From the NCBI GenBank assembly GCA_963766645.1, contig CAVYAY010000003.1:759221-823220 (forward strand): 64,000 nt of DNA, in the 5' to 3' direction. Below, piece by piece: positions 13,838 to 30,338 of the stretch (its first letter is position 1; each line of letters opens with the position of its first letter). Source of the DNA: an uncultured Chloroflexia bacterium (GTDB lineage Bacteria; Chloroflexota; Dehalococcoidia; DSTF01; WHTK01). The position numbers were made by a program, and so were the translations under genes. Under the pieces are notes generated by a model. That model did no database searches and was not told the origin of the DNA. It was given only the letters and a program-made list of their open reading frames with translations.

Positions 13838-15005
13838 TACTAGTTAGCGGCGCCCGGACGGCCATCGGCCGCTTCCAGGGCGCCTTCGCCGAGACTCCCG
13901 CGTCGGACCTCGCCGCGGCCGTGATCAAGGCCGCAGTCGAGCGCGGCGGCCTGCAGCGCGGAGCAGGTCGACCAGGTCGTTCTCGGCTGCGTCGGCCAGG
14001 TGATGGAGGACGCCTATATCGCTCGACACGCCGCCGTGAAGGCCGGGCTGCCGATCGAGGTGCCGGCCTACACGGTCAACCGCATCTGCGGCTCCGGCCT
14101 GGAGGCGATCAACACGGCGGCGCGCTGGATCGAGTGCGGCGACGCCGAAGATCGTCGTCGCAGGCGGCGCCGAGAACATGACGCGCTTGCCGCACTACCT
14201 GCGCGGCGCTCGCATCGGGCTACCGGCTGGGCGACGGCTCGCTGGAGGACGGCATCCTGCACGTCCTCAGCGACCCGTTCAACCGCTACCACATGGGCGT
14301 CACGGCCGAGAACCTCGCCGCCGAGTTCGAGATCTCACGCGAGGTGCAGGACGAATTCGCGCTGCGCAGCCAGCAGCGCGCTGCCGCTGCGATCGAGGCC
14401 GGCCGTTTCCGCGACGAGATCGTGCCGGTGGAGGTGAAGCGGGGCCGCGAGACAGTCGTCATCGACCGCGATGAGCACCCGCGCGAGACCTCGGCGGAGG
14501 CGCTGGCCAAGCTGTCGCCGGCGTTCAAGGAGGGCGGCAGCGTCACGGCAGGCAACGCCAGCGGCATCAACGACGGCGCTGCGGCGGTCGTGCTGATGTC
14601 CAGCCGCGAAGGCCCGCGAGCTGGGCCTCAGCCCGAAGCTGCGCCTGGTCGCCCGCGCTGAGGCCGGCGTTCGGCCGGAGATCATGGGATCCGGGCCGAT
14701 TCCTGCGGTGCAGAAGGCGCTCGCGAAGGCAGGCCTCACGGTCGACGACCTCGACGTCGATCGAGCTGAACGAGGCTTTCGGCTCTGTGGCCGCGGCGTG
14801 CAGCCTCACGCTCGGCCTCGACCCGAGAAGGTGAACCCCAACGGCGGCGCCATCGCGCTCGGCCATCCCGGTCGGCGCTTCCGGCGCCATTCTGGCCGTC
14901 AAGCTGATGTACGAACTGGAGCGCCGCAAGGGCCGCTACGGGCTCGTCACGCTCTGCATCGGCGGCGGGCAGGGCATCGCAACGATCTTCGAGCGCATCG
15001 GTTAA
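13825..15005 (+). CDS. Acetyl-CoA C-acyltransferase (thiolase; PcaF/FadA-like), multiple frameshifts
   Basis: [21 protein letters not shown].., ..[11 protein letters not shown].., ..[14 protein letters not shown] thiolase hallmarks distributed over 3 frames. Confidence 0.8.
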
Positions 15006-15015
15006 GGAGAAGACA

Positions 15016-16037
15016 GTGAAGGTAGCCGTTTACGGACCGGAGCGCCGGGTTGGCATTCTTGAAGGCGAGGACGTGGTCGACGCAGAGGGAGCCTACGCCA
15101 AGTTTGCGCAGGAGATCAGAATCATCCGGCGCCTTACAGGACGGCCGCTGCGACTACACCGGCAGACCTCGAGGCTTTTATCCAGCTCGGCGATCAAGCC
15201 TAGAAGGCGCACAGGAAGCGATTGAGATTTAAGGAATCGCGCGGCGGACCAGGCTGGGCCTCATGGCGAGCCGATTGTCTTCCCGCTTTCGGAAACGAGG
15301 CTTCGCGCGCCGCTGGCCCATCGCGGCGTCAAGCTGTGTATGGCGGCGCTAATTATGCCGATCACCTCTTCGACATGATGCGGGCGCAGGACCCCAACGT
15401 GACGATGGAGCAGGTCAAAGAACGATCGCGGGAGCGGGGAATCGGCGGGTTCTGGAAGATGCCTTCATTCGTGGCGGATCCGGAGCAAGACATCGTCTAT
15501 CCAGAGAGGACCCGGTTACCTCGACTATGAAGGCGAGGTCACATGTCATCGGGAAGACGGCAAGACGCCAAGGGCGGGGATTTGCATGGACCATATCTGG
15601 GGCTACACGCTGCAGAACGACTGGTCCGCCCGCGACCAGCGTGACAACGCCGTCGGGCACGCTGTCGTTCGCCGGCATGAAGAATTGGGATGGCTCATCG
15701 TCGATTGGCCCCTGCATCGTCGTCGGGGAGCTCAAGGACCCGCAGAACGTCGACTTTCAGACCAGGGTCAATGGCGGACTCAGGCAGAACGGAAACACTG
15801 GCGGCATGACGTTCAGTTTCGCGGAGTACCTGGAATACGCGACGCGCGACGTCACTTTCGCTGCCGGCGACATGATTGCCGCAGGTACCTGCAAGGGCAC
15901 GGCGATGGACTCAACACCACGGATCGAAGGGGGCAGCTTCGAGAACGACAAGCTGTTCTTGAAGGTCGGCGACGTGGTCGAGGTTTCGTCACCAACAGAT
16001 CGGCGTCCTCCGAAACCGCATCGTGGCGAAGGTTTAA
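15016..16037 (+). CDS. FAH-family hydrolase, second copy (GTG start after AAGGAGA), frameshifted
   Basis: VKVAVYGPERRVGILEGEDVVD.. N-terminus; ..GDMIAAGTCKGTA.., C-terminal ..LKVGDVVEVSSPTIGVLRNRIVAKV* recoverable in an alternate frame ending at 16037. Confidence 0.6.
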
Positions 16038-16112
16038 TGCCCGCGCATTTGATAACGACTGCAAACAAAGCGCCACCAAACCGCCCTGTCGGGAGAAGGT
16101 TACGTCGAGAGC

Positions 16113-16146
16113 GATTTAGCTACCATCGAACAAACATCGGGGTGAT
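16113..16146 (-). repeat. Repeat copy 1: diverged dnaN 3'-terminal fragment (encodes ..PITPMFVRW-TAG on the minus strand); candidate att/integration-site repeat
   Basis: accatCgaacaaacatcgg matches 27297-27315 at 18/19 positions; the extended 34 nt matches the inverted copy at 21797-21829. Confidence 0.6.
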
Positions 16147-16403
16147 TGGCGCCCATGGTGTAGTCTATGGCAAAATTTGGTCGTCTCTCAGGTCAGAGAG
16201 ACCGCCAACTCAAATGGTACACCCGGCTTTTGATCGTCATTGAACGCAGATGCCGATGGTCATCTACTGGTGAGTACTTCGAGACAACCTTGCTGATCGC
16301 ATCCCCCACCTTGGCGGCAACGATCGACAGCCGGAAGGCTTCACTCGGCGCGGCAGCTCCGCCCTTGCCCGGTTGCTAATCTATGCCTAAATCACAGAGC
16401 TAA

Positions 16404-17880
16404 TCACCTGCCTGTCAGCATCGCGATGGCTCGTGACCACTGTTCGTAACCGCTTCGTGCATCGCCGGGCTCGCCGGGGAGAAAACGCGTGGCCTCGCGG
16501 CGGAGCGAAGCGATCGCGTCTTCGTCACGCCATAAACCGACCGACAAGCCGGCAAGATAGGCAGCGCCCAGGGCGGAAGTGTCCACCGACACGGGCCGCG
16601 ACAACGGCTTGCCTGATGTCGGCCTGCAGCAGCATCAGGCGGTTATTAGCAGCCGCGCCGCCATCTATACGCAGGCTCGCAACTCTGTAGACCGCTATCG
16701 GCTCCGATTACCTCCAGAACGTCCTGGGCCTGGTAATCATCGCATCGACCGCAGCACGCACGATGTGGGCGGCCTGGGTGCCACCCGTGAGGCCCGTCAT
16801 CGTGCCTCGGACATCCGGCGCCCAATACGGTGAGCCCAAACCCGCGAAGGCGGGGACAAACACGACGCCGCCGCTGTTCTCCACCGAGTCCGCCAGCCTG
16901 GTACCTTCGGCGTAGTCGTCGAAGAGATGCAGGTTGTCACGGCACTATTGCAGCGCTGCACCTGCAATGAAGACCGAGCCCTCGAGCGCGTAGCCGGGGC
17001 GGCCGTGCTCCGTGTTAGCTGTGAGGGTCGTCAACAGCCCCGCGCTGTGGTCCACGCGATCCTTGCGAGTGGCGGTCAGGATGAAGCAGCCGGTGCCATA
17101 CGTGATTTTTGTAGCGCCCGCTTTGAAGCAGCACTGACCGAAGAGGGCGGCCTGCTGGTGGCCAGCCAGTGCCGCGATAGGGATGCCAACGGGGAGTCCT
17201 TCGGCTGACGTATGACCACGGACGGAGGCAGAGGGGGACACAGTAGGCAAGCAAGCTCGAGTTAGACCCAAGACGGCGAGCAGTTGATCGTCCCAATCCA
17301 GCCCATCGATGTCGTAGTAGAGCGTGCGGCTCGCGTTGGTCGGGTCTGTCGAGAACACGGCACCTTTGCTCAATTGCCAGGCCAGCCAGGTATCCACCGT
17401 GCCGAAGCAGACGTCGCCGGCTGCGACGCGACCCGCGAGGGTCGGAGCGGAGCGCATGAGCCAGAGCGCCTTGGTGCCGCTGAAGTAGGGGTCCAGCCTC
17501 AGTCCCGTCTTCTTACGAACCGTAGATTCCCAACCCTGGGCAATGAGCTCCTGGCAAATCGGCTCGGAACGGCGGCATTGCCAGACGATCGCCCGATGCA
17601 GCGGCGCCCCGGTTGAGCGGTCCCAGACGACGAGCGTCTCACGCTGGTTGGCGATGCCGAGAGCGATGGGTTGGGAATCAGGCGAGTTGGCGAGTGCCTG
17701 CTGGGTCGCCTGCACAACAGCCTTCCAAATTTCCGTGGCGTCTTGCTCGACCCATCCGGGCTGCGGGTAATACTGCGGCACCTCCTGGTAACCGCGTGCC
17801 AGAATCTCGCCGGCCTGGTCGACGAGGAGCGTTGTTCTTCCCGTCGTCCCGGCGTCGATGGCGAGGATCGCTTCTGCCAT
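16404..17880 (-). CDS. glpK: Glycerol kinase, frameshifted in the C-terminal third
   Basis: N-terminal 311 aa intact (..AIDAGTTGRTTL.., ..TYGTGCF..), C-terminal ..DTSALGAAYLAGLSVGLWRD.. in ORF 16404..16604. Confidence 0.85.
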
Positions 17881-17883
17881 AGG

Positions 17884-18669
17884 TCAGGTATGCTTTTCCA
17901 GCCAGGCAGCCATGTCGCCGAGGACCTGCAGGTGCTCCGGCTCGTTGAAGATCTCGTGGAGTAGGTCCGGGTACAGCTTCAGCGTCTTGTCCTCGGAAGC
18001 CACCACCTCATAGAGGGCCTCGCTGCGAGGCCCATCACCGAGTGGTGATGCTGCTCCGGCCATTATCAGGATTGGCAGCTTGATCGTCTTCGCCAGGTCG
18101 GGCAGCGCCTCGCGCATCTGAGCCATCGCGGACTCGCGCCCCGTGGGTAAGGGTCCATGGTAGACCAGCGGGTCATCACGGTATGCTTGTGCGACGGCCG
18201 GGTCTCGGCTCAGGGTTTCCGAAAGATCGAGGCCGGCGGGCCTTAGTGGTGCTCGATCGGTTGCGAGTCCTCCGCCCGACAAAATAGTCCCTGCCAGCGC
18301 CTCCTGGTAGCGAGCGGTAAACGCCGTGCTGATCGAAGCGCCCATGCTATGGCCCACCAAGAAGACGTCCTGGCCGGGCTCGCGACTCATCACCAATTCA
18401 AGGAAGGTCTTCAGGTCGTCAACGTATTCGTTGTAGCTTTCGACCACCACACGCTCACCGTCAGAGCGCCCATGACCCCTGTGGTCAAGGGCGTAAATCG
18501 TGTAGCCCTGGGGTACGAAGTAATCGACGACGTTCTGATAGCGCCCGCTGTGCTCGCCGAAGCCGTGCGCGATTAGCAGGACCGCCTTGGCTTCGCCATC
18601 CGGCTTCCAGGACTGCCAGTAGATGCTGTAGTCCTCGATCCCCTTGAACAACCCTTCTTCATGCTGCAT
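17884..18669 (-). CDS. Alpha/beta hydrolase, monoacylglycerol lipase / lysophospholipase-like
   Basis: ..LIAHGFGEHSGRY.., GHSMG nucleophile elbow, 261 aa intact; GGAAGG RBS upstream. Confidence 0.8.
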   Translation of the reverse strand: MQHEEGLFKGIEDYSIYWQSWKPDGEAKAVLLIAHGFGEHSGRYQNVVDYFVPQGYTIYALDHRGHGRSDGERVVVESYNEYVDDLKTFLELVMSREPGQDVFLVGHSMGASISTAFTARYQEALAGTILSGGGLATDRAPLRPAGLDLSETLSRDPAVAQAYRDDPLVYHGPLPTGRESAMAQMREALPDLAKTIKLPILIMAGAASPLGDGPRSEALYEVVASEDKTLKLYPDLLHEIFNEPEHLQVLGDMAAWLEKHT

Positions 18670-18719
18670 GGAGCGTCAATCCTTCCGTTGCGAAATCTTG
18701 CCGGGCCGAGCCTTAGGAC

Positions 18720-19056
18720 TTACCCAGTGGCGCTTGCGTCGGGTCGACCCATTGAGCTGTAGTTGTGCCAGACGTGACGCACGCCGGCCGAGGTCTGGTG
18801 CGGGTCGAGGCCCAGCGGCACCGGCTGCGCCGACTTGATTACGCCAGGACGCTTCAGCTCCTTGGTTTCGTCGGTAATCGGGCTGATCAGACTCGACGCA
18901 GGTTCTTTTCCGTTACCAGAGTCGCCATCGCTGCCCCCACATGCCCAAGGAACGCCGCTCCGGCGCCAGCCGCCGAGAGACTCATAGCTCGACGGCGGGT
19001 AGTAAGGCTCTTTGCCAGTTGTTATCAGACACGCTCGCCCTCCTTCGCTGTCCGAG
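18720..19056 (-). CDS. Hypothetical small protein upstream of the lipase (112 codons, no in-frame ATG; AAGGAGG + GTG is 1 nt out of frame, a possible indel)
   Basis: Open frame with GC3 about 75% (coding-like) and no ATG start; no recognisable domain. Confidence 0.2.
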
Positions 19057-19113
19057 CATGTTTATGCGCCTGCGCATAGATAGCACAACATCGTCAGACT
19101 GGCAAGCTGTTGA

Positions 19114-20076
19114 CTAATCGTCAGTAAGCAATGCCTCGGCCGTGAATCGGTCCGTTACCAGGACGTTGACGAGGCGCCCGCACAGGGCGGCGGCAATGGC
19201 CGGGAGCTTACGGGCTCCACCAGCGACGGCCACGCAACGCGGCACGCGGGCCAGTTCAGGCAGGCCGATGCCGATAACTCGCTCCATCATGGTATCGCTT
19301 AGAGGTCGCCCTTGAGCGTTGAAGAAACGCAGGCAGATGTCGCCGACGGCACCCGCCGCTTCTAGCCCACTGATCTCGGCGTGAGAGAAGACGTTTCCGC
19401 TGCTCGCGAGCAAACGCGATGGCTCTGGCACGCCGATCCCCACCAGCGCGACCGTAAGGTGGTTGAACGTCGACATCGTTTCGGTGACGAAGCGGTCCTC
19501 GCGCAACGCAGCGGCGCTTTCGGCCGAGCCGGCGATTCCAGGGCTCGGCAGGAATACGGCCTCGCCATGCAGGAGGTCTGCGAGCCGGTTAGTCAGGCGT
19601 GCCGCGTGGACGGGCGCGGAAGGACTGCCGATGCCGCCTAGGATCTGCACTACCTTGATTCCCTTGAGGCCGGCAACCGGGCTCATGGCGTCAACGGTTG
19701 CCAGGAGGGACTGGCTCCAGGACATGATGCCTACCATGTCATCAGAACGCAGCGTCGTTTCGAGGTAGTAGGCAGCAGCGGATCCCAGCCGGGGCAGCAC
19801 GTCTTCGTCCGCGTCCGACGCTGCGTCCGTGACCAGGGCGAGTTTCAGGCCGAAGCGATGGCGCAGCGCGTCCTCAAGCTCAGGGAAGACGTCCGGCGGC
19901 GTCGAGATGCTGATGCGGACGACGTTCTCTTCTTCGGCCTTGCTCAACAAGCGAGAAACGCGGCTCTGCGTCATGCTGAGCCGGAGGGCGATCTCGGGCT
20001 GGCGCAAGTGCTCCAGGTAGTACATGCGAGCCACCCGCGTCATGAGTCGGAGTTCTTCGCGGCTCGAGGGACTCAA
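19114..20076 (-). CDS. SorC/DeoR-family sugar-binding transcriptional regulator
   Basis: N-terminal HTH (..LSMTQSRVSRLL..) plus a sugar-phosphate-binding domain of about 250 aa; divergent from glpD. Confidence 0.85.
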   Translation of the reverse strand: MSPSSREELRLMTRVARMYYLEHLRQPEIALRLSMTQSRVSRLLSKAEEENVVRISISTPPDVFPELEDALRHRFGLKLALVTDAASDADEDVLPRLGSAAAYYLETTLRSDDMVGIMSWSQSLLATVDAMSPVAGLKGIKVVQILGGIGSPSAPVHAARLTNRLADLLHGEAVFLPSPGIAGSAESAAALREDRFVTETMSTFNHLTVALVGIGVPEPSRLLASSGNVFSHAEISGLEAAGAVGDICLRFFNAQGRPLSDTMMERVIGIGLPELARVPRCVAVAGGARKLPAIAAALCGRLVNVLVTDRFTAEALLTDD

Positions 20077-20105
20077 CCGGCGCTCCGTGTCATATTCAGC
20101 CCCCG

Positions 20106-20139
20106 CTGCATGATAATGCAGACCTGCATAGGGTTGCAG
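20106..20139. promoter_or_regulatory. Two adjacent palindromes (CTGCATgataATGCAG and CTGCAtagggtTGCAG) in the sorC/glpD divergent promoter region; candidate operator
   Basis: Seen directly; related half-site CTGCGCATAG near 19063; assignment to the SorC regulator is inference. Confidence 0.3.
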
Positions 20140-20169
20140 CAGACTCCCAATCGCCCGTAGCCTTGAACC

Positions 20170-21711
20170 ATGGAGCCGCAGCTAAGCGACGACCTGGCCG
20201 GCCAAGAGTTCGATGCCGTGATTATAGGCGGCGGCATCAACGGCGCCGGGGTCGCCCGAGATGCAGCGTTGCGTGGCCTGAACGTCTGCCTGTTCGAGAA
20301 GGGCGATTTCGCCAGCGGCACTTCCAGCAAGTCCACAAAAATCGCTCACGGCGGCCTCCGCTACCTGCGCAACCTTGAGTTCGGTCTTGTGCGCGAGGCG
20401 CAGCTCGAACGCCGCTGGTTGCGTGAGGCCTTGCCTCATCTCGTGGAACCGCTGAGCTTCTGCTATCCCGTGTATCGCGACGGGCCCGACCCGTTTTGGA
20501 AGGTGCGGCTCGGCGTTACTGTGTACGACCTGCTGGACGGCAGGCGTCAGCCGCACAAGAGCCTGAGCGCCAGTGACGCTCTTGCTTCCAATCCCGCGCT
20601 GCGATCAGTTGGTCTCATGGGCGCGCTGCGTTATTGGGACGACCGCATGGACGACGCGCGCGTCTGTCTAGAGACAGTCCTTTCCGCAGAGGAGGCTGGG
20701 GCCGAGTGTCTTAATTACACTTCCGTGCTCGGCATCCAAAGGACGGGGCGCGGGTTCGAGGTGACTTTTGGCGACAGCCTAAGTCATGCAGCCAGGTCGA
20801 GGTCCGTGTTTTGCAAGGTGATCGTGAACTGCGCCGGACCGTGGGCCGAGTCGGTTATCGAATCCCTGCGCCAGAGCTCGCGTCCCCTCCTGGCGCCGAC
20901 CAAGGGCGTCCACATCGTCGTCCCCAGAGTAGAGGGCGATGATGCTCTGGTGCTGGAGAACGTGGAGGACAAGCGGACCTTCTTCGCGATCCCCTGGCAC
21001 GATCAGACGCTGATTGGCACTACCGACACGTTTTTTGACGGCCCCGCGGACTCAGTCGCGGTCGAAGACTGCGATGTTGATTACTTACTCGACGCCGCGT
21101 CCTACTACCTGCCGGGAGCGCACTTCAAACGGCGAGATGTCCTCTATTCGTTCGCCGGCTTGCGGGCACTCGTGGCGCCCGGCGGTGACCCGACGTCCGA
21201 GGGCAAGATAAGCCGGCGTCACCTCGTGCTCCGAGACTCACCGGGCGTGATTACGCTGGTGGGTGGCAAGTTTACGACGTTTCGCCAGATGGCCGAGGAC
21301 GCCGTCGATGCCCTGGTAGAGGAAATCGGCCTGGGCAAGCGGCCGGCGAAAACGAAGGCAACGCCATATTTCCAGAGGCGTCCACCGAAAAGCGACGCCA
21401 CGACCGCCCCGGCCCTCTGGCGCTCCCTGCAGCAGCGCTACGGGCCGAGAGCCGGCGCTGTCTTCGACATATGCAACTCTGACGAGATACTTGGACAACG
21501 CATCATCGAATGCAGCCCCGTGCGTGTTGGCGAGTTCGTGTTCGCAGCCCAGAGCGAGAAGATCCGCTCCATCCGCGACTTCATCGAACGACGCACCCAT
21601 CTCGCATGGCATGCTGCCGGAAGGGAATTACACGACCGCCTGCTAGCGCTCAAGCCCTACCTGCGCGGCAGGATGGATGGCGCGTCGCTTCTCGACTCAA
21701 GCGACTGCTAG
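20170..21711 (+). CDS. glpD: FAD-dependent glycerol-3-phosphate dehydrogenase
   Basis: ..FDAVIIGGGINGAGVARDAALRGL.. FAD motif, ..HGGLRYL.., 513 aa intact. Confidence 0.9.
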   Translation: MEPQLSDDLAGQEFDAVIIGGGINGAGVARDAALRGLNVCLFEKGDFASGTSSKSTKIAHGGLRYLRNLEFGLVREAQLERRWLREALPHLVEPLSFCYPVYRDGPDPFWKVRLGVTVYDLLDGRRQPHKSLSASDALASNPALRSVGLMGALRYWDDRMDDARVCLETVLSAEEAGAECLNYTSVLGIQRTGRGFEVTFGDSLSHAARSRSVFCKVIVNCAGPWAESVIESLRQSSRPLLAPTKGVHIVVPRVEGDDALVLENVEDKRTFFAIPWHDQTLIGTTDTFFDGPADSVAVEDCDVDYLLDAASYYLPGAHFKRRDVLYSFAGLRALVAPGGDPTSEGKISRRHLVLRDSPGVITLVGGKFTTFRQMAEDAVDALVEEIGLGKRPAKTKATPYFQRRPPKSDATTAPALWRSLQQRYGPRAGAVFDICNSDEILGQRIIECSPVRVGEFVFAAQSEKIRSIRDFIERRTHLAWHAAGRELHDRLLALKPYLRGRMDGASLLDSSDC

Positions 21712-21736
21712 CCAGGTCTCCGTTACGAGGAACCAT

Positions 21737-22714
21737 TCAGGCCAAACTCAGTTCCAAGGAGAATGGGACGCATGCGATTTGGCGCGCGTTGAACAGTGAT
21801 CCCGATGTTTGTTCAATGGTGACTAAATCCCGAGTCTGAGAAGGCGCGATCAGCAGGATTGAACCACTGATGCGAGATTCGATGTTGGATGCAGTCACTT
21901 GAGCGTCCGTAGCCTTCAAGAGCAGAGCGAGCTTATCGCCCTCCGCTTCATGTCTCCAGGCTCGCACTTGTTCGGCGTAGGCCGGCAAGCAAGAGCTGAG
22001 TGCTGCGACATCAAGTCCTTCTGGGCTGCGCGGCTCCATGCGCCGACTATCCGCTCTGGCCTCCTCATCGCGGTAGGTAGCAAAGATGAGAATTGATGCA
22101 TCCGACGGACGCCGGGACAGGTGCTCCAGCAGTCGGAGCGTGGAGTCATCGGCCCAATGCAGGTCCTCGAGGCAGAGGAGAAGCCCGGCGGGCGCTGATC
22201 TGGCGATCGTCGAGAGGAATTCCGCGGTGGATTCGAAGAGCCGGTACTGGTCGTGGGACGCCCCAGCCGACGAACCCGCGAGGTCGTGAAGACCGGGCCT
22301 CAGCTCCGGCAGCAGGAGGGCCAGATCGGCCGCGAAGGGTCCCAACCCGGTCAGGAGGTCGCCGGACGTAAGATGGATGTGATCTTGGAGCGGCTCGATG
22401 AAGGGCATGTAGGGTGGCAGGCCGTCGGTGTCATAGGCGTGGCCGGTGAGGACTGTCCAGCCAGACGCCCGCGCGATCTTGGCGGCCTCCTCCACAAGGC
22501 GCGTCTTGCCGATGCCGGCCTCCCCGGCGATAAGGACCACACCGACCTTGCGGTCGGGGGGCTTAGCAAGGTAATGACCGAGGGTGGTGAGCTCACGCTC
22601 TCGCCCCACGAGTTTCGGCGCGGTGCGTGTTCCTCCCAAGTCTCTAGTCACGCGGCGATTTTGGCTCGGGGACGATGAGGTGTCAACGGCGTGTGAATGA
22701 CACGATGCCGTCAT
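21737..22714 (-). pseudogene. Truncated large LuxR/MalT-family regulator: N-terminal AAA_16 ATPase domain only; the frame runs through repeat copy 3 and stops
   Basis: ..VVLIAGEAGIGKTRLVEEA.. Walker A, ..LLCLEDLHWADDSTLRLL..; no TPR or HTH part; last codons (..DLVTIEQTSGSLFN..) are encoded by the dnaN-end repeat. Confidence 0.55.
21797..21829 (+). repeat. Repeat copy 3 (inverted): diverged dnaN 3'-terminal fragment reading ..VIPMFVQW-TGA on the plus strand
   Basis: ccgatgtttgttcaatggtgac is identical (22/22) to the reverse complement of 27294-27315; longer similarity with copy 1. Confidence 0.6.
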
Positions 22715-22728
22715 AGTGTCTCTGCCAG

Positions 22729-22926
22729 TTGGATTCCAATGAGTCTAGTAGACTTCGGTATCCAGCCGGCCTCGCTATCGGCTCCTGGAGGGACGAGGAT
22801 GAACTGGGAGCACTGCGGAGCGGAGGACGGTCATTTCAGCCTGGCGACGCATTCCACGCACGGCTCGAATACGACCGCTGGCAAGCCGCTATGCGGGGCC
22901 TTATCGCCACAGAACGTGCGCACTGA
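22729..22926 (+). pseudogene. Glycerol kinase C-terminal fragment (about 65 aa), a remnant of a second, diverged glpK
   Basis: ..AGLAIGSWRDEDELGALRSGGRSFQPGDAFHARLEYDRWQAAM.. aligns with the resident GlpK C-terminus (..AGLSVGLWRDEDAIASLR..GYEQWSRAIAM). Confidence 0.5.
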
Positions 22927-23030
22927 CGTCTGTCGCACCTACTACTGGCTTCCTTCCTCAAGGTGGGGAGATTACATTCGACAGGCGTCGTGAGCACGAT
23001 GCGCCGACAGGCGTCGTAGAGGAGGCCAGG

Positions 23031-23927
23031 ATGGGAGAGACCAGAGCCTTGACGCTGAACGAGGTTCACAGGCTGGTAAGCGCTGCGGGTCCGGGCGCCG
23101 CCAATGTGACACCTCCTGAGGTCACCGCGTACTACGTGGACCAGATCCATGCGAAGTCCCGTGATGACCTGGAAATCTGGCCAGACGTGTCGTATGGCCC
23201 GGATCCTCGCCACGGCCTGGACATCTACTCGCCCAAGAACCACCCGAGTACTGCCCTGCCAGTCGTGATGTTCTTCTTCGGCGGTGGGTTCATCGAAGGC
23301 AGTAAGAACCGTGACGGTCAGTGGATCTCGGGTAATGTCGCGGCCCACTTCGCTCGGCACCAGATGATCGGCATTACGGCAAACTACCGGCTGGCTCCGG
23401 AGTTTCAGTGGCCGGAAGGGTCACGGGATGTGGCGCGGGCTGTCGACTGGGTACGGGAGCACATCGCGGAATATGGTGGCGACCCGAACCGGATCGCGCT
23501 CATGGGCCACTCCTCGGGTGCTAGCCACGTGGCTTCCTATGCGCTTAGGGATGACCTCTGTCCGGCAGGGGGACAGGCCATACGGGCTGCGATCCTGCTG
23601 TCGGGGGCGTACGCACCGAACCCGGCCGTGCCCGACCCGCGACAGGCTGCGTACTACGGCGACGACACATCGAGGTACACGCAGATGGGGAGCCTAGGAA
23701 ACGTCAAGAGAAATGTGCCGGTGTTCATCCTAGTGGCGGAAAACGATGTCTACAACTTCCAGGTTGCGGCCACCAGGCTCATCGAGGAGGTGACGGTGCA
23801 TCAGGGCAAGGCACCGTGGTTTAGGATGCTGCACGGACACAACCACTCAACGTCGCTGCTCAGCATAGACACGGACGACCCCAGTGTCGGCCCTGAATTG
23901 ATCGAGTTCGCGCAGCGGTACGTCTGA
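23031..23927 (+). CDS. Alpha/beta hydrolase-fold esterase/lipase (carboxylesterase type)
   Basis: ..VVMFFFGGGFIEGS.. oxyanion region, GHSSGA nucleophile motif, 298 aa. Confidence 0.8.
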   Translation: MGETRALTLNEVHRLVSAAGPGAANVTPPEVTAYYVDQIHAKSRDDLEIWPDVSYGPDPRHGLDIYSPKNHPSTALPVVMFFFGGGFIEGSKNRDGQWISGNVAAHFARHQMIGITANYRLAPEFQWPEGSRDVARAVDWVREHIAEYGGDPNRIALMGHSSGASHVASYALRDDLCPAGGQAIRAAILLSGAYAPNPAVPDPRQAAYYGDDTSRYTQMGSLGNVKRNVPVFILVAENDVYNFQVAATRLIEEVTVHQGKAPWFRMLHGHNHSTSLLSIDTDDPSVGPELIEFAQRYV

Positions 23928-23956
23928 CGAGAATACTCCATGGACGATAGGGAGTT

Positions 23957-24262
23957 GTGCATGGTGGGTACGATCCTTATGAAGTCTCGCGAACGGTTCT
24001 CAAGCGACTCGACCGCGCCTATCACGATGGGGACGCGCAGGCGTATGCGGCAGCGTTCGCGGAAGATGCCGACTTCGTGAATCGAATTTGGAATGCATCT
24101 GGTGGCACGAATGAAACAGAAGATCGACATGGTGATTTTTTCACGCGGTTAGCCCAAGGAACGACGAGGGAACTCCAGTTGGTTCGGGCTCGGGCTATCA
24201 GCGATTCGTCGTTGTCGCGCGGCCAAATGTCGACTGGCAGTTTGCCTGGCGAGGCAATCTAG
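23957..24262 (+). CDS. SnoaL-like / NTF2-like domain protein (possibly truncated)
   Basis: ..AYHDGDAQAYAAAFAEDADFVN.. typical SnoaL-like N-terminus; lower-GC patch. Confidence 0.3.
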   Translation: MHGGYDPYEVSRTVLKRLDRAYHDGDAQAYAAAFAEDADFVNRIWNASGGTNETEDRHGDFFTRLAQGTTRELQLVRARAISDSSLSRGQMSTGSLPGEAI

Positions 24263-24358
24263 ATCGGGTCCACTTCTGAATGTGATGGCGACGCCGAATC
24301 TACAGCATGAGCAAGGACGACTCGAATCCTCAAAGGGTCACTAAGGACGCCATTTGCA

Positions 24359-25669
24359 GTGAAGTTCTTCAAGCTTCTCCCACTAGTAGGCATGTGGGCA
24401 GTCACCGTCGTGCTCGCCTGTAACTGCAAGTCAGAGGAACCGTTGACGCAGGATGAAATGGCCAACCGGCTGGGAGACATCATCGTCCAACTTGACACTC
24501 AGCAGAGGGATGCGTTCAGCCGGTTCGAGTCGCAATTGAATGCGCCTGGCACGCTGGATCAAACAGCTGAGGCCGCGATGCTCTTCGCCCAGCAATGGGC
24601 AGAAGCCTTTGACGGCGCTCGCGCCGCTTGCTACGACTTGGGCGACATCGACCAGACTGCTTTTGGAAGGCTCCGCTGGGACTTCTGTGCTGGCCTAGCG
24701 GACGAACAGTCCGGTGTTATGTCTGCTCTGAGGATCCGGGCGACACTCGGCCTCGCCGCTTTCGCGAAGACTCTCGATGAGGTCTATAGCCGTGCCGTCT
24801 ATGAAGAAGGCTACTTGGCCGAGATCTGCTCGAGGATGAAGGAGCTGCTGCGTGCGGAGGCTGGTGCTGAGAGCCTGCAGTGCCGCTCCCTGCAAAGCGA
24901 CATAGGACGGGGAGTTGCTGATTTGCTGCGGGCACGGATCGACCCAAAGGTAGAGCTCCTGCCGGCTCTCGATATCGGGGAGGGCGACCGTGAGGTTCGA
25001 GTTCTGCGTGAGGTTTCCTTGGCAGACGCCGGGGTTGCAGAAATACGGGTGCCGAACGGTGACGGACCCTGGCCGATGGTGATCTCGTTGGATGATCCTG
25101 ATCAGGGAACCTTCCTAGCGAGCAATGAGGACTTGGCCTGGGGCACGCTCCTTGCGGCGCAGGGAACGGTTGTAGTCAATCTGCGCCAACTGGGCCCGGC
25201 GGACGAAGGTAGTAGTCTCAAATGTGCTGTTCGCCGAGTGCGCGAACTGGCTGGGGAGTTCGCGGGCGATCCCGACAATGTGACGCTCCTCGGTTGGAAC
25301 AGACAGGCGGAAGTCGCACTTGCGGCAGCATTGTCCGCGAGAGAGCCGATCGAATGCGGAGGCTCGTCTACCTACGTTCCCGACAACTTTGTCGGCCTTT
25401 TTGATACCAACCCGGCCCTGTCGAGTTTGGCTGACAACCTTGCCGAAGGTGACCGCAGCGTTCGCCTTATGCTGGTCTTCCCAAAGAACGGCGGGTCAAT
25501 CTTCAGTCCAGTGGAGAAGAAGGGCCTGCAAGAATTCACGTCCGCTGCTACTGCTGCTGGCTATGACGCTCAGCTCAGGGAACTGGGCTCTTGGTACAGC
25601 GGCTCGCGCGTCTACGCCGATAGAGGCTTGAGGGCTGCGGCTAAGGCAATCTCAGCGTTTCTCTACTGA
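24359..25669 (+). CDS. Hypothetical secreted/lipoprotein with a C-terminal alpha/beta-hydrolase-like domain whose nucleophile position reads GWNRQ (Ser replaced, likely non-catalytic)
   Basis: Signal peptide MKFFKLLPLVGMWAVTVVLAC; ..GPWPMVISLDDPD..NVTLLGWNRQAEVALAAAL.. resembles the esterase oxyanion/nucleophile regions; low-GC patch. Confidence 0.4.
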   Translation: MKFFKLLPLVGMWAVTVVLACNCKSEEPLTQDEMANRLGDIIVQLDTQQRDAFSRFESQLNAPGTLDQTAEAAMLFAQQWAEAFDGARAACYDLGDIDQTAFGRLRWDFCAGLADEQSGVMSALRIRATLGLAAFAKTLDEVYSRAVYEEGYLAEICSRMKELLRAEAGAESLQCRSLQSDIGRGVADLLRARIDPKVELLPALDIGEGDREVRVLREVSLADAGVAEIRVPNGDGPWPMVISLDDPDQGTFLASNEDLAWGTLLAAQGTVVVNLRQLGPADEGSSLKCAVRRVRELAGEFAGDPDNVTLLGWNRQAEVALAAALSAREPIECGGSSTYVPDNFVGLFDTNPALSSLADNLAEGDRSVRLMLVFPKNGGSIFSPVEKKGLQEFTSAATAAGYDAQLRELGSWYSGSRVYADRGLRAAAKAISAFLY

Positions 25670-25707
25670 CAGCAGCGCCCACGATCGGGCGATAGTGTCT
25701 GGCGGGC

Positions 25708-26763
25708 TCACACGATGCCGTGCTGCTGCGCGTAGACGGCGGCCTGGGCGCGGTTGTTGAGGTTGGTCTTGATCAGGATGCTGGAGACGTGGTTCTGGAC
25801 GGTGCTTCGGGTGATGACCAGCTCGTTGGCTATTTCCGGGTTGGATTTGCCCTGGGCGAGCAGGCGCAGGACTTCGAGCTCGCGCTCTGAAAGGCCCTCA
25901 ATCGGCTCGGGACCGAGGCCGCTGGTTTGCTCGGACGCGGGCGGCAGGTCCCACACAAACTCCTCGATGAGGCGGATCCCCAACGACGTTTGCGACCCAT
26001 CTGCATAGAACGCTTCGCCCATCCCCTCCACGGGAACGAGTTGAGCCCCCGGTATGGCCGCTGCGATCTGACGAGCTGACGTAGCCATGCTGAAGTCGTC
26101 AGCCACGCCGGCCGGACGTTCGCTGATGACTAGTGTTGGCACTCGGACGCGAGCTAGCCACGGCCGTGCATCATCCACCATACCAGCGCGAAGCATCTTT
26201 ACGTAATCGTTTTGGGTGACCGCCGCCCTGATCTGGTCGACGGTTATAGAATGCTGGCCACGGACAACGGTGTAACCAGATGCCATGAGGTAGAGGAAGT
26301 CTTCCCATTCTTGGACGGCCAATGATTCGAAGCTGTGAGGCTGGTTTGGTTCCGGCCCGATGGGCGGATCTGGATTGAACAGGATGAGAGCTCGAACCAG
26401 GGCCGGATGCAGGGCGGCATACCGGACGGCAACTCGCCAGAATTCGTAGGACGCCATGAATATGAAGCCATCCAGCGCCAACGCACGCACAACGGCATCC
26501 ATGTCTGGCAGATAACTCTCGATGGAGTGTCCTTCACGCAGGACGCGCGAGGACATGCCGAGTCCCCGCGCGTCAAAGTGGATCAGCTTGAAGCGGCTTG
26601 CCAGTGGTTCGAGCCAGTAATTTAGATTGACGCCAGCCCATTGCTGTCGCTGGTGGTTAAATGGGTGTGGCCAGAGGACGAAAGGCAGGCCGCTACCCGC
26701 TACGCTGTAGGCGATGTCGTAGCCGTCGCTGGTCTTGACGTACTGGACAGGGGGCGCGTCCAT
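25708..26763 (-). CDS. Alpha/beta-hydrolase domain fused to a C-terminal LuxR/GerE-type HTH (transcriptional regulator)
   Basis: N-terminal ..VKTSDGYDIAYSVAGSGLPFVLWPH.. ab-hydrolase core; C-terminal ..LSERELEVLRLLAQGKSNPEIANELVITRSTVQNHVSSILIKT.. GerE HTH; start set at the internal Met (26763). Confidence 0.7.
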   Translation of the reverse strand: MDAPPVQYVKTSDGYDIAYSVAGSGLPFVLWPHPFNHQRQQWAGVNLNYWLEPLASRFKLIHFDARGLGMSSRVLREGHSIESYLPDMDAVVRALALDGFIFMASYEFWRVAVRYAALHPALVRALILFNPDPPIGPEPNQPHSFESLAVQEWEDFLYLMASGYTVVRGQHSITVDQIRAAVTQNDYVKMLRAGMVDDARPWLARVRVPTLVISERPAGVADDFSMATSARQIAAAIPGAQLVPVEGMGEAFYADGSQTSLGIRLIEEFVWDLPPASEQTSGLGPEPIEGLSERELEVLRLLAQGKSNPEIANELVITRSTVQNHVSSILIKTNLNNRAQAAVYAQQHGIV

Positions 26764-26790
26764 CGTGGGCGCAATTCTACCTCGCTTCGA

Positions 26791-27320
26791 CGTTGCACGA
26801 TGAAGCCTGTGCCGGCCGGTCATCTCGAAGATGCGGTCAAGGCAGAGATCGTTCGCGTCCTCAGCCATCCTGACGTCGTGGCTGCGGAACTCGCTGCTGC
26901 CAGTCGACCAAGACGGCGGCGTATCGAAATTCGAAATTGCGAAGGCCGAGAAGGAGCTCTCTGACGGTCGAGCAGCGTGAACGGAAGCTCCTGCAGCTCT
27001 TCATGGTTGAGGACATCAGCGAGGACGCGATACGAGAAGAGGCCGCGAACCTCGGTCGCCAGAAGAAAGCTCTCGAGGAGAAGCTGGCCGGTCTACGATT
27101 GAAGGCAGCACCCGCCTTCGAGTTCGAAGACATGGACCACCTGAAGCGCGTCTGTGCCGCAATCGAGGCTTGGTTAGCGGAGCCAGCTGACGAGCAGTGG
27201 TCGCTTGTCTTCGAGGCGCTTCAGGTCAGCGTCGAGGCGACGCGAGAGCAGGCTACCGTGCACGGAGTCCTGCCTTACGAAGCGCCGAAGTTTGTCACCA
27301 TTGAACAAACATCGGCATGA
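26791..27320 (+). pseudogene. Large serine recombinase C-terminal fragment (post-zinc-ribbon / coiled-coil region), frameshifted near 26950 with no catalytic domain
   Basis: ..LRRCTMKPVPAGHLEDAVKAEIVRVL.. and ..LTVEQRERKLLQLFMVEDISEDAIREEAANLGRQKKALEEKLAGL.. resemble large-serine-recombinase C-terminal regions; the ORF terminates inside repeat copy 2. Confidence 0.4.
27294..27315 (-). repeat. Repeat copy 2: authentic 3' terminus of dnaN (..VIMPMFVQW-TGA) serving as the right boundary repeat
   Basis: In frame with full-length dnaN; identical to the inverted copy at 21802-21823. Confidence 0.6.
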
Positions 27321-28428
27321 TGACATGGACGTAGTTGTCGTCCCCGAGCGTCTTGAACACGCCCTGGCTGGACGGACCCGTCGTCTCCATCGCTAGCTGA
27401 CCTGACTCCAGTGCCTGCAAAACGTCCTGCAGGTACTTGCCGTTGAACGCGATCTTCACGCCCTCGCCCTCGACGGCCGCGTCGATTTCGCCCTCGTTGT
27501 CGCCGACTTCCTCGGCCCGCGCCGAAATCACGATCTTGCCAGGCGTCACGCCCTCGCCCGGGGTGACCACGAGCCGCACGATGCCCGAGCCGTCACGCGC
27601 GAATACCGACGCCGTCCGCGTCTCGCGCAAGAACTCGCCCACCTCCGCGACAGCGCGGCTGGACGAACTGGCCGGGATCAGCTGGTTGAAGTTGGGGAAC
27701 GTGCCCTGGATCAACTGCGCCACCATTTCGGCATTGGCCAGCCGGAACAGCACCTGGGTCTTCGCCCCGTTCGTCCGCAGTGTCAGCGCGTCCTCCTCCT
27801 CGGCCAGCAGACGGCTCAGCTCTGAGAAGGCCCGCGCCGGCACGACGATCTCCGTCGCTTCCACCGAAGTCGCGAGCGGCAGCTTGTAGACCGAGAGCCG
27901 GAATCCGTCCGAGGCTGCCAGCGTCAGCGTGTTGCTCTCGAACTTCGTGTCGACGCCGGTCAGGACGGGGCGAGAATCGTCGGTCGCAGCCGCAAATACC
28001 GTCTGCGCGATCGCCTGCCGCAGGCCCTTCGCCTCCAGCTGCACCTCGATGCCGTCCTGCACCACCGGTGTCGGCGGGAAGTCTTCTGCATCCAGGCCGC
28101 TGATCTGTGCTTCGTTGCGCGCACATTCGACCTTCAGTTGTCGCGACCGCGCCGCCAGCTCCAACGTGATACGTTCGACGGGCAGCGTGTTGACGAAGTC
28201 CGTCAGCAGCCTCGCCGGCACCGCCGCGGCGCCCGGCTCGTCGATTTCGGCGTCGATCCAGTAGTTCATCGTGATCTCGAGATTCGTCGCCGAGAGGCGG
28301 AGCTTTCCGTTGTCCTCCGTTGTGAGCAGGACGTGGGATGTAATCGGCAGTGTGCTGCGCGTGGCGACCGCCCTGCCGACAACGCTGAGTCCGCGCGAAA
28401 AGGCTTCCTGAGTGCAGGTGACTTTCAT
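27295..28428 (-). CDS. dnaN: DNA polymerase III beta sliding clamp
   Basis: 377 aa, three-domain clamp; MKVTCTQEAFSRGLSVVGRAVATRSTLPITSHVLL.. N-terminus. Confidence 0.9.
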   Translation of the reverse strand: MKVTCTQEAFSRGLSVVGRAVATRSTLPITSHVLLTTEDNGKLRLSATNLEITMNYWIDAEIDEPGAAAVPARLLTDFVNTLPVERITLELAARSRQLKVECARNEAQISGLDAEDFPPTPVVQDGIEVQLEAKGLRQAIAQTVFAAATDDSRPVLTGVDTKFESNTLTLAASDGFRLSVYKLPLATSVEATEIVVPARAFSELSRLLAEEEDALTLRTNGAKTQVLFRLANAEMVAQLIQGTFPNFNQLIPASSSSRAVAEVGEFLRETRTASVFARDGSGIVRLVVTPGEGVTPGKIVISARAEEVGDNEGEIDAAVEGEGVKIAFNGKYLQDVLQALESGQLAMETTGPSSQGVFKTLGDDNYVHVIMPMFVQW

Positions 28429-28556: not shown

Positions 28557-29041
28557 CTATCGACTCTGAAGCTGCCTTAACCCGCTCTCCGGCGTCCAAA
28601 CGCGGATCGCCAGGTGGTCCGGCGGGTCCGCGACCTTCGTCAGCACGACCTCGCTTATGTCTACTCGGAACAAGTGCCCTGAGACCTCGTCGCCGCCGCT
28701 GCCGTCACCCATCGACTTCAGGCGCTCTGGCTCATTGACCTCGACCGCCCTTCCCGATAGCTTCGCGTCGCCGCTCCACAACGTCGGGTCTTCAGGCGGG
28801 TCATCCGACGTGCAGTGCAGCGCCAGGCGAGGGTCTCGGGCGAGGTCGGCCAGCTTCCGCGCCCCGGGCATCGAACCAAACCAGACGTCGCCGTCCGAGA
28901 AGGTCACCTCGATGCCGCTGACGCGGGGCGAGCCGTCCTTGCGCAGAGTCGCCATGACTTTGTGCCGGTACGCATCGAACTTCGCCTGCACCGCCGCTGC
29001 AAACTCCGGCTCCGCCGCTTCGATGTCGGCCCAGCGTGCCA

Positions 29042-29045: not shown

Positions 29046-30338
<1,293 letters not shown>

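Follow-up and report, generated by a model that had tools for sequence, protein, structure and literature searches.

Remnants of integrative elements, very probably inserted by large serine recombinases, behind dnaN in an uncultured Dehalococcoidia bacterium

The variable DNA that follows dnaN in the window (the whole stretch of DNA that was analysed, 64,000 nucleotides from an uncultured Dehalococcoidia bacterium) is very probably an immobilised and decayed array of integrative elements, inserted by large serine recombinase (LSR) recombination at the end of this gene and now occupying positions 16033-27294. The evidence comprises repeats of the dnaN end, recombinase remnants, a clade-wide association of LSR genes with dnaN, breaks of synteny and junction polymorphisms; the order of events, as well as catalysis by these LSRs, is what we infer from it.

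The target gene is uninterrupted, encodes all three beta-clamp Pfam domains (DNA_pol3_beta, _2 and _3) and is 95, 94 and 93% identical to its counterparts in L001, L002 and L003, respectively. Its PMFVQW-stop ending is the native dnaN C-terminus, conserved across about 60 Dehalococcoidia dnaN loci. When the 21-mer CCGATGTTTGTTCAATGGTGA, which represents the closing bases of dnaN (27295-27315, minus strand, no mismatches), was searched for with up to 3 mismatches, exactly three matches were obtained in the 64-kb window (27295-27315, 21802-21822 and 16120-16140) and none in 100 dinucleotide-preserving shuffles of it, so that none is expected by chance. The recurrence of the dnaN 3' end in two direct copies and one inverted copy, from which the sequence-only reading started, is thereby confirmed. 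The gene, the three copies and the outer limit of the variable DNA are located as follows:

27295..28428, minus strand: dnaN, DNA polymerase III beta clamp, 377 aa; uninterrupted; target gene
27295..27315, minus strand: copy c3, att core, the last 7 codons of dnaN
21802..21822, plus strand: copy c2, att core, an exact match to the dnaN end in inverted orientation
16120..16140, minus strand: copy c1, att core, direct relative to dnaN, 3 mismatches; outermost junction of the island
16032..16033, no strand: outer limit of the variable DNA, with a conserved catabolic gene cluster to its left

Copies c1 (which reads PMFVRW-TAG) and c3 are direct repeats with 18/21 identical positions, and the cores of c2 and c3 are identical at 22/22. 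Inverted similarity extends over 47 nt at 77% identity between 21799-21845 and 27272-27318, and over 36 nt at 83% between 16113-16148 and 21794-21829, in line with the roughly 34 nt previously noticed for the latter pair. Synteny with relatives is kept from dnaN up to about 37.7 kb, and against L001, L004, L005, L007, L008, L010 and L071 it stops at 27295, exactly at the dnaN stop; at the far side, 364-16032 aligns to L084, L085 and L086 at 80-84% nucleotide identity, all three alignments ending at 16031/16032. The limits of the variable DNA, 27295 and 16032, coincide with c3 and c1. Relatives have different DNA behind dnaN, with the catabolic cluster left of 16032 not near that gene, and no empty attB with both flanks of the window was found among them.

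Three recombinase remnants are present, of which one had been recognised before, and each of the three copies adjoins an LSR 3' tail, as judged from translations and tail alignment:

26749..27320, plus strand: LSR3 remnant, the C-terminal third of an LSR, split over two frames
about 21797-21990: LSR2 tail, about 60 C-terminal codons of a second recombinase, reading ..DKLALLLKATDAQVTASNIESRISGS..RDLVTIEQTSG
16056..16145, plus strand: LSR1 tail, about 30 C-terminal codons of a third recombinase gene (..GEGYVESDLATIEQTSG*) that is otherwise deleted

The fragment next to dnaN was correctly assigned to the serine recombinases by the sequence-only reading: in tblastn comparisons with the LSRs of L003, L006 and L048, combined with translations, 26749-27317 (plus strand) matches intact LSRs from about residue 328 to the end in two frames, with a combined E value of 1.6e-24 against the L003 protein, and a Pfam search alone does not detect it. 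This remnant retains part of the zinc ribbon, the coiled coil and the tail ..KFVTIEQTSA*, with its TGA stop (27318-27320) in dnaN antisense; the catalytic and recombinase domains are absent, and a GerE regulator (25708..26868) sits where the 5' two thirds would be expected. LSR3 and the old LSR tail that follows the distal copy in L010 are 74% identical across 121 nt, the LSR2 tail is 72% identical over 191 nt to a degraded LSR directly behind dnaN in L001, and the LSR tails of both L006 and L087 match the DLATIEQTS motif of LSR1. No intact LSR (Resolvase, Recombinase and zinc ribbon) occurs in the island and, because only C-terminal remnants are left, the window is a relic of LSR-driven integrative elements and not a functional member. 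As all three copies adjoin an LSR tail, they are element-borne arms that mimic the dnaN end, and probably not, as had been supposed, pseudo-3'-ends displaced from the gene. The inner arm of c1 has no resemblance to the dnaN interior and no clear one to any P arm.

Related genomes supply the intact counterparts. An LSR gene or remnant adjoins the dnaN stop in 14 of about 60 related Dehalococcoidia loci, always convergently, and five of these 14 LSRs are intact. The overlap with dnaN amounts to 26 nt in L006, L032 and L050, to 29 nt in L048 and, in another frame, to 54 nt in L003; a Resolvase, Recombinase and Zn_ribbon_recom domain architecture is found in the LSRs of L003, L006, L032, L048, L050 and L087. 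The L006 element, because it carries Replic_Relax, TraG-type and VirB4-type ATPases and a primase behind dnaN, looks like an integrative conjugative element, and that of L032 is a 6.3-kb unit with a second copy at its boundary. Second direct copies of the dnaN end occur in L004, L005, L010, L018, L032, L075 and L078; displaced dnaN ends in these other genomes lie 0.9-7.6 kb downstream, and their flanks match the dnaN-proximal flank of another (sister) genome. For example, the distal copy in L078 and its flank share 90% identity across 73 nt with the end of dnaN and its flank in L040, synonymous changes being present in the proximal L078 copy, and the pairs L078 vs L040, L075 vs L044/L045 and L032 vs L078 behave as occupied vs unoccupied sites. 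In L106, two intact LSR genes face each other across a perfect core, and for some 81 of 120 LSR homologues the C-terminal tail agrees with a translation of a dnaN-end-like core, a count made with rough regular expressions over four frame/orientation combinations. The core of the earlier proposal, LSR integration at the 3' end of dnaN by an element that brings a substitute end, is well supported by these other genomes, its analogy with SCC standing in logic only and its view of the window copies as displaced ends needing correction. No description of dnaN as an LSR integration target was found in the literature searched.

The middle copy is accompanied by two further features:

21753..21801, plus strand: P arm of c2, gggacgcatgcgatttggcgcgcgttgaacagtgatc, mirroring the core imperfectly
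21737..22714, minus strand: chimeric ORF, the AAA_16 N-terminus of a LuxR-type (LAL) regulator joined in frame with the LSR2 tail

The P arm and core of c2 share the symmetry TTGAACA-N14-TGTTCAA; P arms of the same type stand beside the distal copies of L005 and L010, and the arm beside the intact LSR of L087 agrees at 24/38 positions (counted by hand). A dyad centred between C1 and C2 of the core scores 13/23 in c2, 16/23 in L075, 12/23 in L032 and 11/23 in L033, with its axis at the same position in these four independent sites, and from this symmetry CC (27314-27315 at c3) is predicted as the crossover dinucleotide. Copy c3 is of the junction type (dnaN arm / element arm P'3), and c2 is flanked by the two arms expected of an attP site; the same two arms surround an intact LSR in L087. 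The metagenome contig L083 is 97.2% identical to 19950-21822 and diverges exactly at the last base of the c2 core. Ordinary integration at dnaN with a non-palindromic CC crossover cannot produce an inverted c2. In the chimeric ORF, the regulator breaks off near residue 245 (Pfam AAA_16 covers residues 34-210), and the frame extends past the LSR2 tail through the core into the P arm. A LuxR/AAA regulator truncated at the inverted copy had indeed been described; the GlpK C-terminal fragment said to abut it was not found, glpD ending at 21711 and the junction consisting of the in-frame LSR tail instead.

The proposed mechanism places the end of attB in the last 7 codons of dnaN and would have attP cross the 3' end of the element's recombinase gene. 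Such an attP would be a near-palindrome, one half-site of which copies the dnaN end (PMFVQW-stop) and encodes, on the opposite strand, the recombinase tail ..TIEQTS. With strand exchange predicted at the CC of the Pro codon, integration would leave the element supplying the last codons of dnaN, so that dnaN and the recombinase gene converge and overlap, and would move the old dnaN end to the far side of the insert. The regenerated site could then be reused, elements stacking upon one another, and the survivors in the window would be the tails LSR3 (at dnaN), LSR2 (at the middle copy) and LSR1 (at the outer copy), together with cargo. For the inverted c2 with both attP arms, a further rearrangement, or the capture of a second element with an unused attP, must presumably have occurred.

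The cargo and its surroundings consist of the following:

about 16180-16207: terminator-like hairpin after glpK
16404..17880 (about), minus strand: glpK (glycerol kinase), Pfam FGGY_N plus the beginning of FGGY_C at 16945-17880, the remainder in other frames
17884..18669, minus strand: Hydrolase_4 / lysophospholipase-like alpha-beta hydrolase (Pfam Hydrolase_4, 3.6e-62)
19114..20181, minus strand: SorC-type regulator (Pfam Sugar-bind, 6.6e-61)
20170..21711, plus strand: glpD (glycerol-3-phosphate dehydrogenase; Pfam DAO, DAO_C), 97% amino acid identity to P0121 on L083
22803..23927, plus strand: carboxylesterase / alpha-beta hydrolase (Pfam BD-FAE, COesterase, Abhydrolase_3)
24359..25669, plus strand: 436-aa ORF without a family match in Pfam or NCBIfam
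25708..26868, minus strand: regulator with an alpha/beta-hydrolase N-terminus and a LuxR (GerE) HTH (GerE 1.1e-17, weak Abhydrolase_1; NCBIfam)

The glycerol module reported as complete is present as glpK, hydrolase, SorC-type regulator and glpD, but its completeness is compromised by glpK, which in the assembly contains one in-frame stop and shifts frame at least twice. The conserved housekeeping genes adjoining dnaN are equally broken, being split into 2-4 frames relative to intact orthologues (80-97% identity), which indicates a high indel error rate in the assembly. Frameshifts, including those of glpK, therefore do not show decay, and the pseudogene status of glpK is uncertain. The visibly lower GC described for 21.8-25.7 kb was not confirmed as such, the dip being modest (0.575-0.63 vs a window mean of 0.642). 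Searches with Pfam and NCBIfam revealed no relaxase, coupling protein, type IV secretion gene or transposase in the island, and there is no tmRNA, tRNA or any other Rfam match in the window.

How c2 came to be inverted can be explained in more than one way. Under one tentative account, which we consider rather unlikely, the inversion and the combinations of arms stem from a recombinase-catalysed intramolecular event (an inversion, or excision then recapture) and not from composite capture: a site of the L001 type (dnaN arm / P'2) recombining with one of the L010 type (P2-type arm / P'3) would yield c3 (dnaN arm / P'3) and c2 (P2 / P'2). In the closest relative, L001, a remnant of the LSR2 type lies directly at dnaN, and in L010 a group-1 P arm meets an LSR3-type tail at the distal junction; the window has the reciprocal combinations; and the c2 and c3 cores are identical, vs 3 mismatches in c1. 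Direct sites would nevertheless give excision and not inversion, an inverted pre-state requires a previous inversion that is itself unexplained, the other orientation is seen in no reads or alternative assemblies, and no active recombinase is now present. It is also conceivable, albeit doubtful, that the 11.2 kb arrived once as a composite or cointegrate, with c3 and c1 as its junctions and c2 as an unused second attP, derived from another family member, which travelled within it alongside the glycerol genes. Consistent with such an entry are the direct repeats c1 and c3 at both limits of the variable DNA, the two attP arms of c2 (like L087), the glpD-P arm unit joined to other DNA in L083, and natural sites with two recombinase genes (L106); yet the inner arm of c1 matches no known P arm, its core is more diverged than c2 and c3 and better fits an older junction, and with tandem co-excision the internal site should be direct rather than inverted.

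Explanations outside site-specific recombination fare worse. We regard it as highly improbable that the orientation of c2 (or of its segment) is an artefact, produced when long metagenome reads were assembled with many errors, or represents one state of a polymorphic population: the indel errors that leave conserved dnaN neighbours in 2-4 frames speak for an artefact, but the shared repeats (22-47 nt) are too short to mislead long-read assemblers, and an independent contig, L083, bears out the linkage of glpD, P arm and core as far as the core. A dispersed short repeat (REP or MITE-like), or plain partial duplication of the 3' end of dnaN, can hardly be credited as the origin of the copies, even though they are short (21-47 nt), one copy is inverted like terminal inverted repeats and 36-nt inverted repeats flank the glycerol genes. 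There are just three copies in 64 kb, a recombinase tail adjoins every one, similarity stops short of the dnaN interior, the same layout recurs with intact LSRs at dnaN in many genomes, and the island is devoid of transposases.

As a very probable array of LSR-inserted elements at the dnaN end, the island can be compared with several known systems. In the Dehalococcoides ssrA islands, the serine integrase DsiB (~540 aa) lies at the island edge beside a single-copy essential target gene, and a direct repeat of ~20 bp duplicates the 3' end of that gene; multiple islands occur in tandem, many without an integration module and with variable metabolic cargo (PMC3146451, McMurdie et al., 2011). Bacterial class, edge LSR (DsiB being compared by description), duplicated essential-gene 3' end, tandem islands and metabolic cargo are alike, whereas the target here is the protein-coding dnaN and not a tmRNA gene, the recombinase ORF crosses attP and reaches into the coding end of its target, neither a small partner recombinase like DsiA nor a six-gene integration module is seen, and the hosts are soil/sediment Dehalococcoidia with larger, GC-rich genomes. 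SCC elements employ LSRs (CcrAB, CcrC) to insert cargo at the 3' end of rlmH (orfX), which the element restores; direct repeats of ~15-20 bp mark the junctions, and tandem or composite arrays and recombinase-less remnants are common (summarised in PMC3146451). Cargo islands in a conserved gene's 3' end, the restored end, junction repeats, arrays and remnants are thus common to both, while the target gene and host phylum differ and the recombinase gene, internal in SCC, stands here at the junction and overlaps att. Membership of the SCC family was rejected, the clade LSRs scoring 44-105 bits against the NCBIfam CcrA, CcrB and CcrC models (cut-offs 700-900; 80-113 bits, with cut-offs of 375-900, in the comparison that takes in XisF) and the target being dnaN, not rlmH. 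With phage and ICE large serine integrases (phiC31, Bxb1, A118, TP901-1, SPbeta SprA; Firmicutes ICEs), the clade LSRs share the Resolvase/Recombinase/zinc ribbon architecture, imperfectly palindromic att sites around a central dinucleotide, attP beside int and an apparently conjugative representative (L006), the sequence relation being a distant one (35 bits to SPbeta YokA; 46 bits to the TP901-1 catalytic domain). The identity shared by attP and attB, in contrast, is unusually long here (~20 nt), because its bases must encode two protein ends at once.

Intact versions of these elements are carried by related uncultured Dehalococcoidia at the same spot behind dnaN, and those of the window have been worn down to remains over the 11 kb that follow the dnaN stop (16033-27294).

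Copies of the end of dnaN occur at three places in the window, the 21-mer CCGATGTTTGTTCAATGGTGA giving three matches at up to three mismatches and none in shuffled controls:

27295-27315, minus strand: copy c3, no mismatches, closing dnaN
21802-21822, plus strand: copy c2, no mismatches, inverted relative to dnaN
16120-16140, minus strand: copy c1, three mismatches, encoding PMFVRW-TAG

The two direct copies and one inverted copy described in the sequence-only reading are thereby borne out. Copies c1 and c2 are 83% identical over 36 nt, and c2 and c3 77% over 47 nt. The dnaN gene that ends in c3 (27295-28428, minus strand) is complete, with all three beta-clamp domains, and because PMFVQW-stop is the native C-terminus of DnaN, conserved at about 60 Dehalococcoidia loci (protein identity down to 52%), the dnaN end is the original, to which the other copies are related.

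The variable DNA can be delimited by comparison with relatives, the nearest dnaN loci being those of metagenome-assembled Dehalococcoidia (Chloroflexota), namely L001 (95%), L002 (94%), and L003 (93%), the last with its dnaN on a 3.2-Mb chromosome. In a comparison of 11 relatives, nucleotide synteny on the dnaN side extends from about position 37.7 kb as far as the dnaN stop, breaking off exactly at 27295 in seven relatives and about 80 nt past the stop, within a homologous recombinase tail, in L002 and L003. On the other side lies a conserved catabolic cluster of aromatic or homoprotocatechuate type (364-16032; HpaB, glyoxalases, acyl-CoA dehydrogenase, LysR, SBP_bac_5 solute-binding protein, FAA hydrolases, a metallo-beta-lactamase-fold protein, CoA-transferase A and B, and thiolase), which is 80-84% identical to three relatives (L084-L086); all three alignments terminate at 16031/16032, and the DNA to the right differs in each genome. 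Given these two limits, the variable DNA comprises 16033-27294, with c3 at its inner edge and c1 88 nt inside its outer edge. In the relatives the catabolic cluster does not adjoin dnaN and the DNA behind dnaN is different in every genome; tblastx of the island or the left flank against the 10 kb downstream of dnaN in relatives returned high-GC noise, from which no real synteny emerged. The check on base composition and codon usage put forward from the sequence alone, run as GC3, does not set the island cleanly apart from its flank (0.71-0.75 for island genes, 0.72-0.87 for the conserved left cluster, and 0.75-0.89 for dnaN and the genes upstream). As separate observations, a segment of about 1.1 kb separating the genes for CoA-transferase B and thiolase (12640-13824), holding a 140-aa ORF with no Pfam match (13243-13665), is present in L084 and has no counterpart in L085 and L086, where the gap is about 78 nt, and an ORF scan shows two long same-strand ORFs (about 1034 and 1117 aa; GC3 0.80-0.84) at 43717-50090.

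Sequence quality bears on how gene remnants in the window are read. The conserved genes upstream of dnaN (28557-35341; PNPOx-like, class-III aminotransferase, HAD hydrolase, and others) each fall into two to four reading frames, and since their L001 and L003 orthologues are intact (80-97% identical within segments), the assembly is rich in indel errors, apparently at about one per few hundred bases. Frameshifts, including those in glpK and the recombinase remnant, are therefore no sign of decay; the evidence of gene decay consists instead of missing domains and truncations.

Other genomes provide evidence that second copies of the dnaN end are probably displaced former ends, in that the flank of the distal copy in one genome matches the flank of dnaN in another. 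In the clearest case, L078, a 73-nt stretch of the distal copy and its flank shares 90% identity with the L040 dnaN end and the flank beside it, and the copy closing dnaN in L078 carries synonymous differences (CCG, CAA, TAA), as expected if the element supplied that copy; L075 behaves likewise against L044 and L045, as does L032 against L078. Behind the distal copy of L010 lies an old recombinase tail, itself 74% identical over 121 nt to the flank of window c3, an arrangement that is the signature of elements stacked in succession. Site-specific integration at the dnaN 3' end, the central proposal made from the window alone, is thus supported by comparative evidence, with its details corrected.

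The enzymes presumed responsible are large serine recombinases (LSRs). An LSR gene or remnant adjoins the dnaN stop at 14 of the approximately 60 loci with a recognised dnaN end, on the opposite strand in all 14, and five are intact (505-531 aa; Resolvase, Recombinase, and zinc-ribbon domains). The last codons of LSR and dnaN overlap by 26 nt in L006, L032, and L050 and by 29 nt in L048, with the LSR tails ..TTERTSA, ..TTGQTWA, ..TTEQTWA, and ..TTGQTSAL, respectively, each followed by a stop; the L003 pair overlaps by 54 nt and does so in another frame. The L006 element looks like an integrative conjugative element, as it further holds a Replic_Relax protein, a TraG/TraD-type protein, a DnaG-type primase, and a VirB4-like ATPase. 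The L032 element (11109-17402), a 6.3-kb unit with an intact recombinase and a second dnaN-end copy closing its far side, looks like a small defence island, with low-GC3 cargo encoding a CAP12/Pycsar-type TIR-domain protein and a HEPN-domain protein, and the 7-kb inserts of L005, L010, and L018, which extend from dnaN to a second direct copy, hold metabolic genes only. Four short-read metagenome contigs (L021, L023, L037, and L044) stop inside the recombinase gene just behind dnaN, which suggests that such elements commonly break assemblies.

In the window, each of the three copies bears a recombinase tail on the side away from the dnaN-like reading direction. The remnant at c3 (LSR3, 26749-27320) matches LSR residues from about 328 to the end, so that the C-terminal recombinase fragment reported there from sequence alone (26791-27320) is confirmed by tblastn against intact LSRs of relatives (E 1.6e-24), the only search to reveal the homology, as the plus-strand ORF at 26937-27320 had no Pfam match; the 5' two thirds of LSR3 have been replaced by an opposite-strand hydrolase-LuxR gene. 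At c2, the last 60 or so codons of LSR2 are fused in frame to a truncated AAA_16 domain of a LuxR-type regulator (ORF 21737-22714), with no pseudo-att site seen at the fusion point (about 21990), and this tail shares 72% nucleotide identity with the degraded recombinase directly behind dnaN in L001. About 30 codons of LSR1 are left at c1, ending in ..GYVESDLATIEQTSG and a stop. The island cargo comprises glpK, a Hydrolase_4 protein, a SorC regulator, glpD, an esterase, a 436-aa ORF without a family match, and the hydrolase-LuxR regulator; no intact recombinase, transposase, tRNA, tmRNA, or known RNA was found in the island, and a metagenome DNA scan with a wobble-masked glpK C-terminal pattern gave no matches. 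The locus is a fossil array of elements with no intact recombinase.

Conserved arms of two types lie directly 5' of the distal copies, at window c2, L005, L010, and L087 (type 1) and at L032, L075, and L033 (type 2). They are imperfect mirrors of the core (e.g., TTGAACA-N14-TGTTCAA), with a dyad axis between core bases 1 and 2 (13/23 positions at window c2, 16/23 in L075, 12/23 in L032, and 11/23 in L033). Position -1 is always G at dnaN and C at most distal junctions, and CC at +1/+2 is nearly universal; strand exchange is therefore inferred to take place at this CC, within the Pro codon. One half-site of att would then be the 21-mer, which encodes PMFVQW-stop in one direction and TIEQTS from the complementary strand, and in the integrated state the final Ala and stop of the recombinase (..TCG GCA TGA) would be completed by dnaN antisense, an ending directly readable for the LSR3 remnant at 27312-27320. 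The inner arm of c1 was also considered as a piece of the dnaN interior, that is, a true duplicated gene fragment, and this was rejected because neither local nor anchored alignments outscored shuffled sequences; alignment with the type 1 P arm (the attP half beside the core) matched the core only, leaving an 8-nt deletion variant not demonstrable, and a metagenome DNA scan for the arm gave no matches.

Homologues of the L003 LSR number at least 475 at E <= 1e-20. When the tails of the 120 closest are sorted by rough regular expressions, about 81 are compatible with a translated dnaN-end-like core.

C-terminal tails of the 120 closest homologues of the L003 LSR (rough regular expressions)
..TIEQTSA: 20/120, dnaN-end core read antisense
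..SPLNKHRH..: 16/120, dnaN-end core antisense, another frame
..RCLFNGD and stop: 31/120, dnaN-end core sense, +1 frame
..HAD(V/A)..: 14/120, dnaN-end core sense, +2 frame
..ILQRASA: 15/120, unassigned
No recognisable class: 24/120

Family members with tails ..FFILQRASA-stop and ..N(D/N)HADARG.. (P0018, P0041, P0046-P0048, P0088, P0091, and others) may mirror other targets, such as the DnaN ends of other clades (..MPMR..) or other genes. At the DNA level, the RCLFNGD-class gene of L081 is co-directional with the core, so the recombinase gene can sit on either side of the near-palindromic attP. In the attP form, the LSR ORF does not stop at the core but continues into the P arm, which adds 20-34 C-terminal residues (..TIERTSA-SPFRNDQ... 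in L087; ..TIEQTSG-SLFNARQ... at window c2), and in the integrated form dnaN antisense gives an immediate stop after ..TIEQTSA. That an att site shared by two protein ends serves as the recombinase's built-in sensor of integration state, with the LSR gene on either side and the dnaN end a clade-wide hot spot, is a speculative proposal that we consider improbable as a whole; if true, the tail switch could bias integration versus excision without a separate directionality factor, and the dnaN end would rank, across its clade, with the ssrA hot spot of Dehalococcoides.

The inverted copy c2 has the architecture of attP, with a P-type arm (21753-21801) on one side and a recombinase-tail arm on the other. 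The same two arm types surround an intact 552-aa LSR in L087, whose ORF runs through ..RDLVTIERTSA and the core into the P arm, as does that of c2. The contig on which this intact gene lies in attP configuration (L087 5995-7653) is listed as viral (IMG/VR UViG 3300020193_000218); an NmrA-like gene and a transposase of the IS3 family are found next to the recombinase, and no evident phage genes were seen with Pfam. Derivation of the c2 P arm from a co-directional recombinase tail was rejected, its +1 and +2 frames both being vaguely LSR-like, which left the idea undemonstrable, and the L087 arm lacking a second recombinase. An intact counterpart of two recombinase genes facing across one core is shown by L106 (8001-11038), in which two intact LSR genes converge with a 118-nt overlap across a perfect 21-mer copy (9511-9531); two tyrosine recombinase genes adjoin the pair.

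Ordinary integration at dnaN cannot produce an inverted c2, because the inferred CC crossover is non-palindromic. An assembly artefact is the less likely explanation; the metagenome contig L083 shares 97.2% identity with window 19950-21822 (end of sorC, glpD, P arm, and core) and is unrelated exactly after the last core base, so that c2 is a real recombination junction differing between two close strains. The arm pairs suggest a recombinase-mediated exchange: c3 joins a dnaN arm to the LSR3-side arm (P'3) and c2 its P arm (P2) to the LSR2-side arm (P'2), and the reciprocal pairs occur elsewhere, dnaN arm with P'2 in L001 and P2-type with P'3-type at the distal junction of L010. Exchange between L001-type and L010-type junctions, with the DNA kept in inverted orientation, would thus yield the window's combinations, the alternative being that a composite element with an unused attP inside it was captured.

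The closest described system is that of the ssrA-specific genomic islands of Dehalococcoides, which carry the serine integrase DsiB at the island edge, are bounded by 20-bp direct repeats of the target 3' end, and often lack integration genes when in tandem (PMC3146451). The SCC-like character first proposed holds insofar as SCCmec at rlmH follows the same logic; it does not extend to the target, which is dnaN, or to the enzymes, which are not Ccr or XisF orthologues and are only distantly related to solved integrases. The dnaN-end elements differ from both systems in their target, their hosts, and an att site placed inside two overlapping coding ends. A full-text search found no paper on dnaN as a natural attachment site within the literature searched. 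On the sequence comparisons, the putative dnaN-end hot spot of Dehalococcoidia, with its large LSR family, is a new example of a well-known kind of system.

Several uses follow. The dnaN end offers a simple marker to delimit islands in metagenome-assembled Dehalococcoidia genomes, with the caution that contigs from this group are prone to stop at dnaN, and natural LSR/attP/attB triplets with an unusually long shared core are candidates as genome-engineering tools. The inverted c2 and the state-dependent recombinase C-terminus are the parts most worthy of experiment. For the organisms themselves, the 3' end of an essential replication gene appears to be a recurrent landing site of serine-recombinase elements across uncultured Dehalococcoidia. 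Genes for conjugation, defence-like genes (TIR, HEPN), and modules for metabolism (glycerol, sugars, and transporters) travel on these elements, which would explain the break in gene order that is always seen at the dnaN stop in these genomes.
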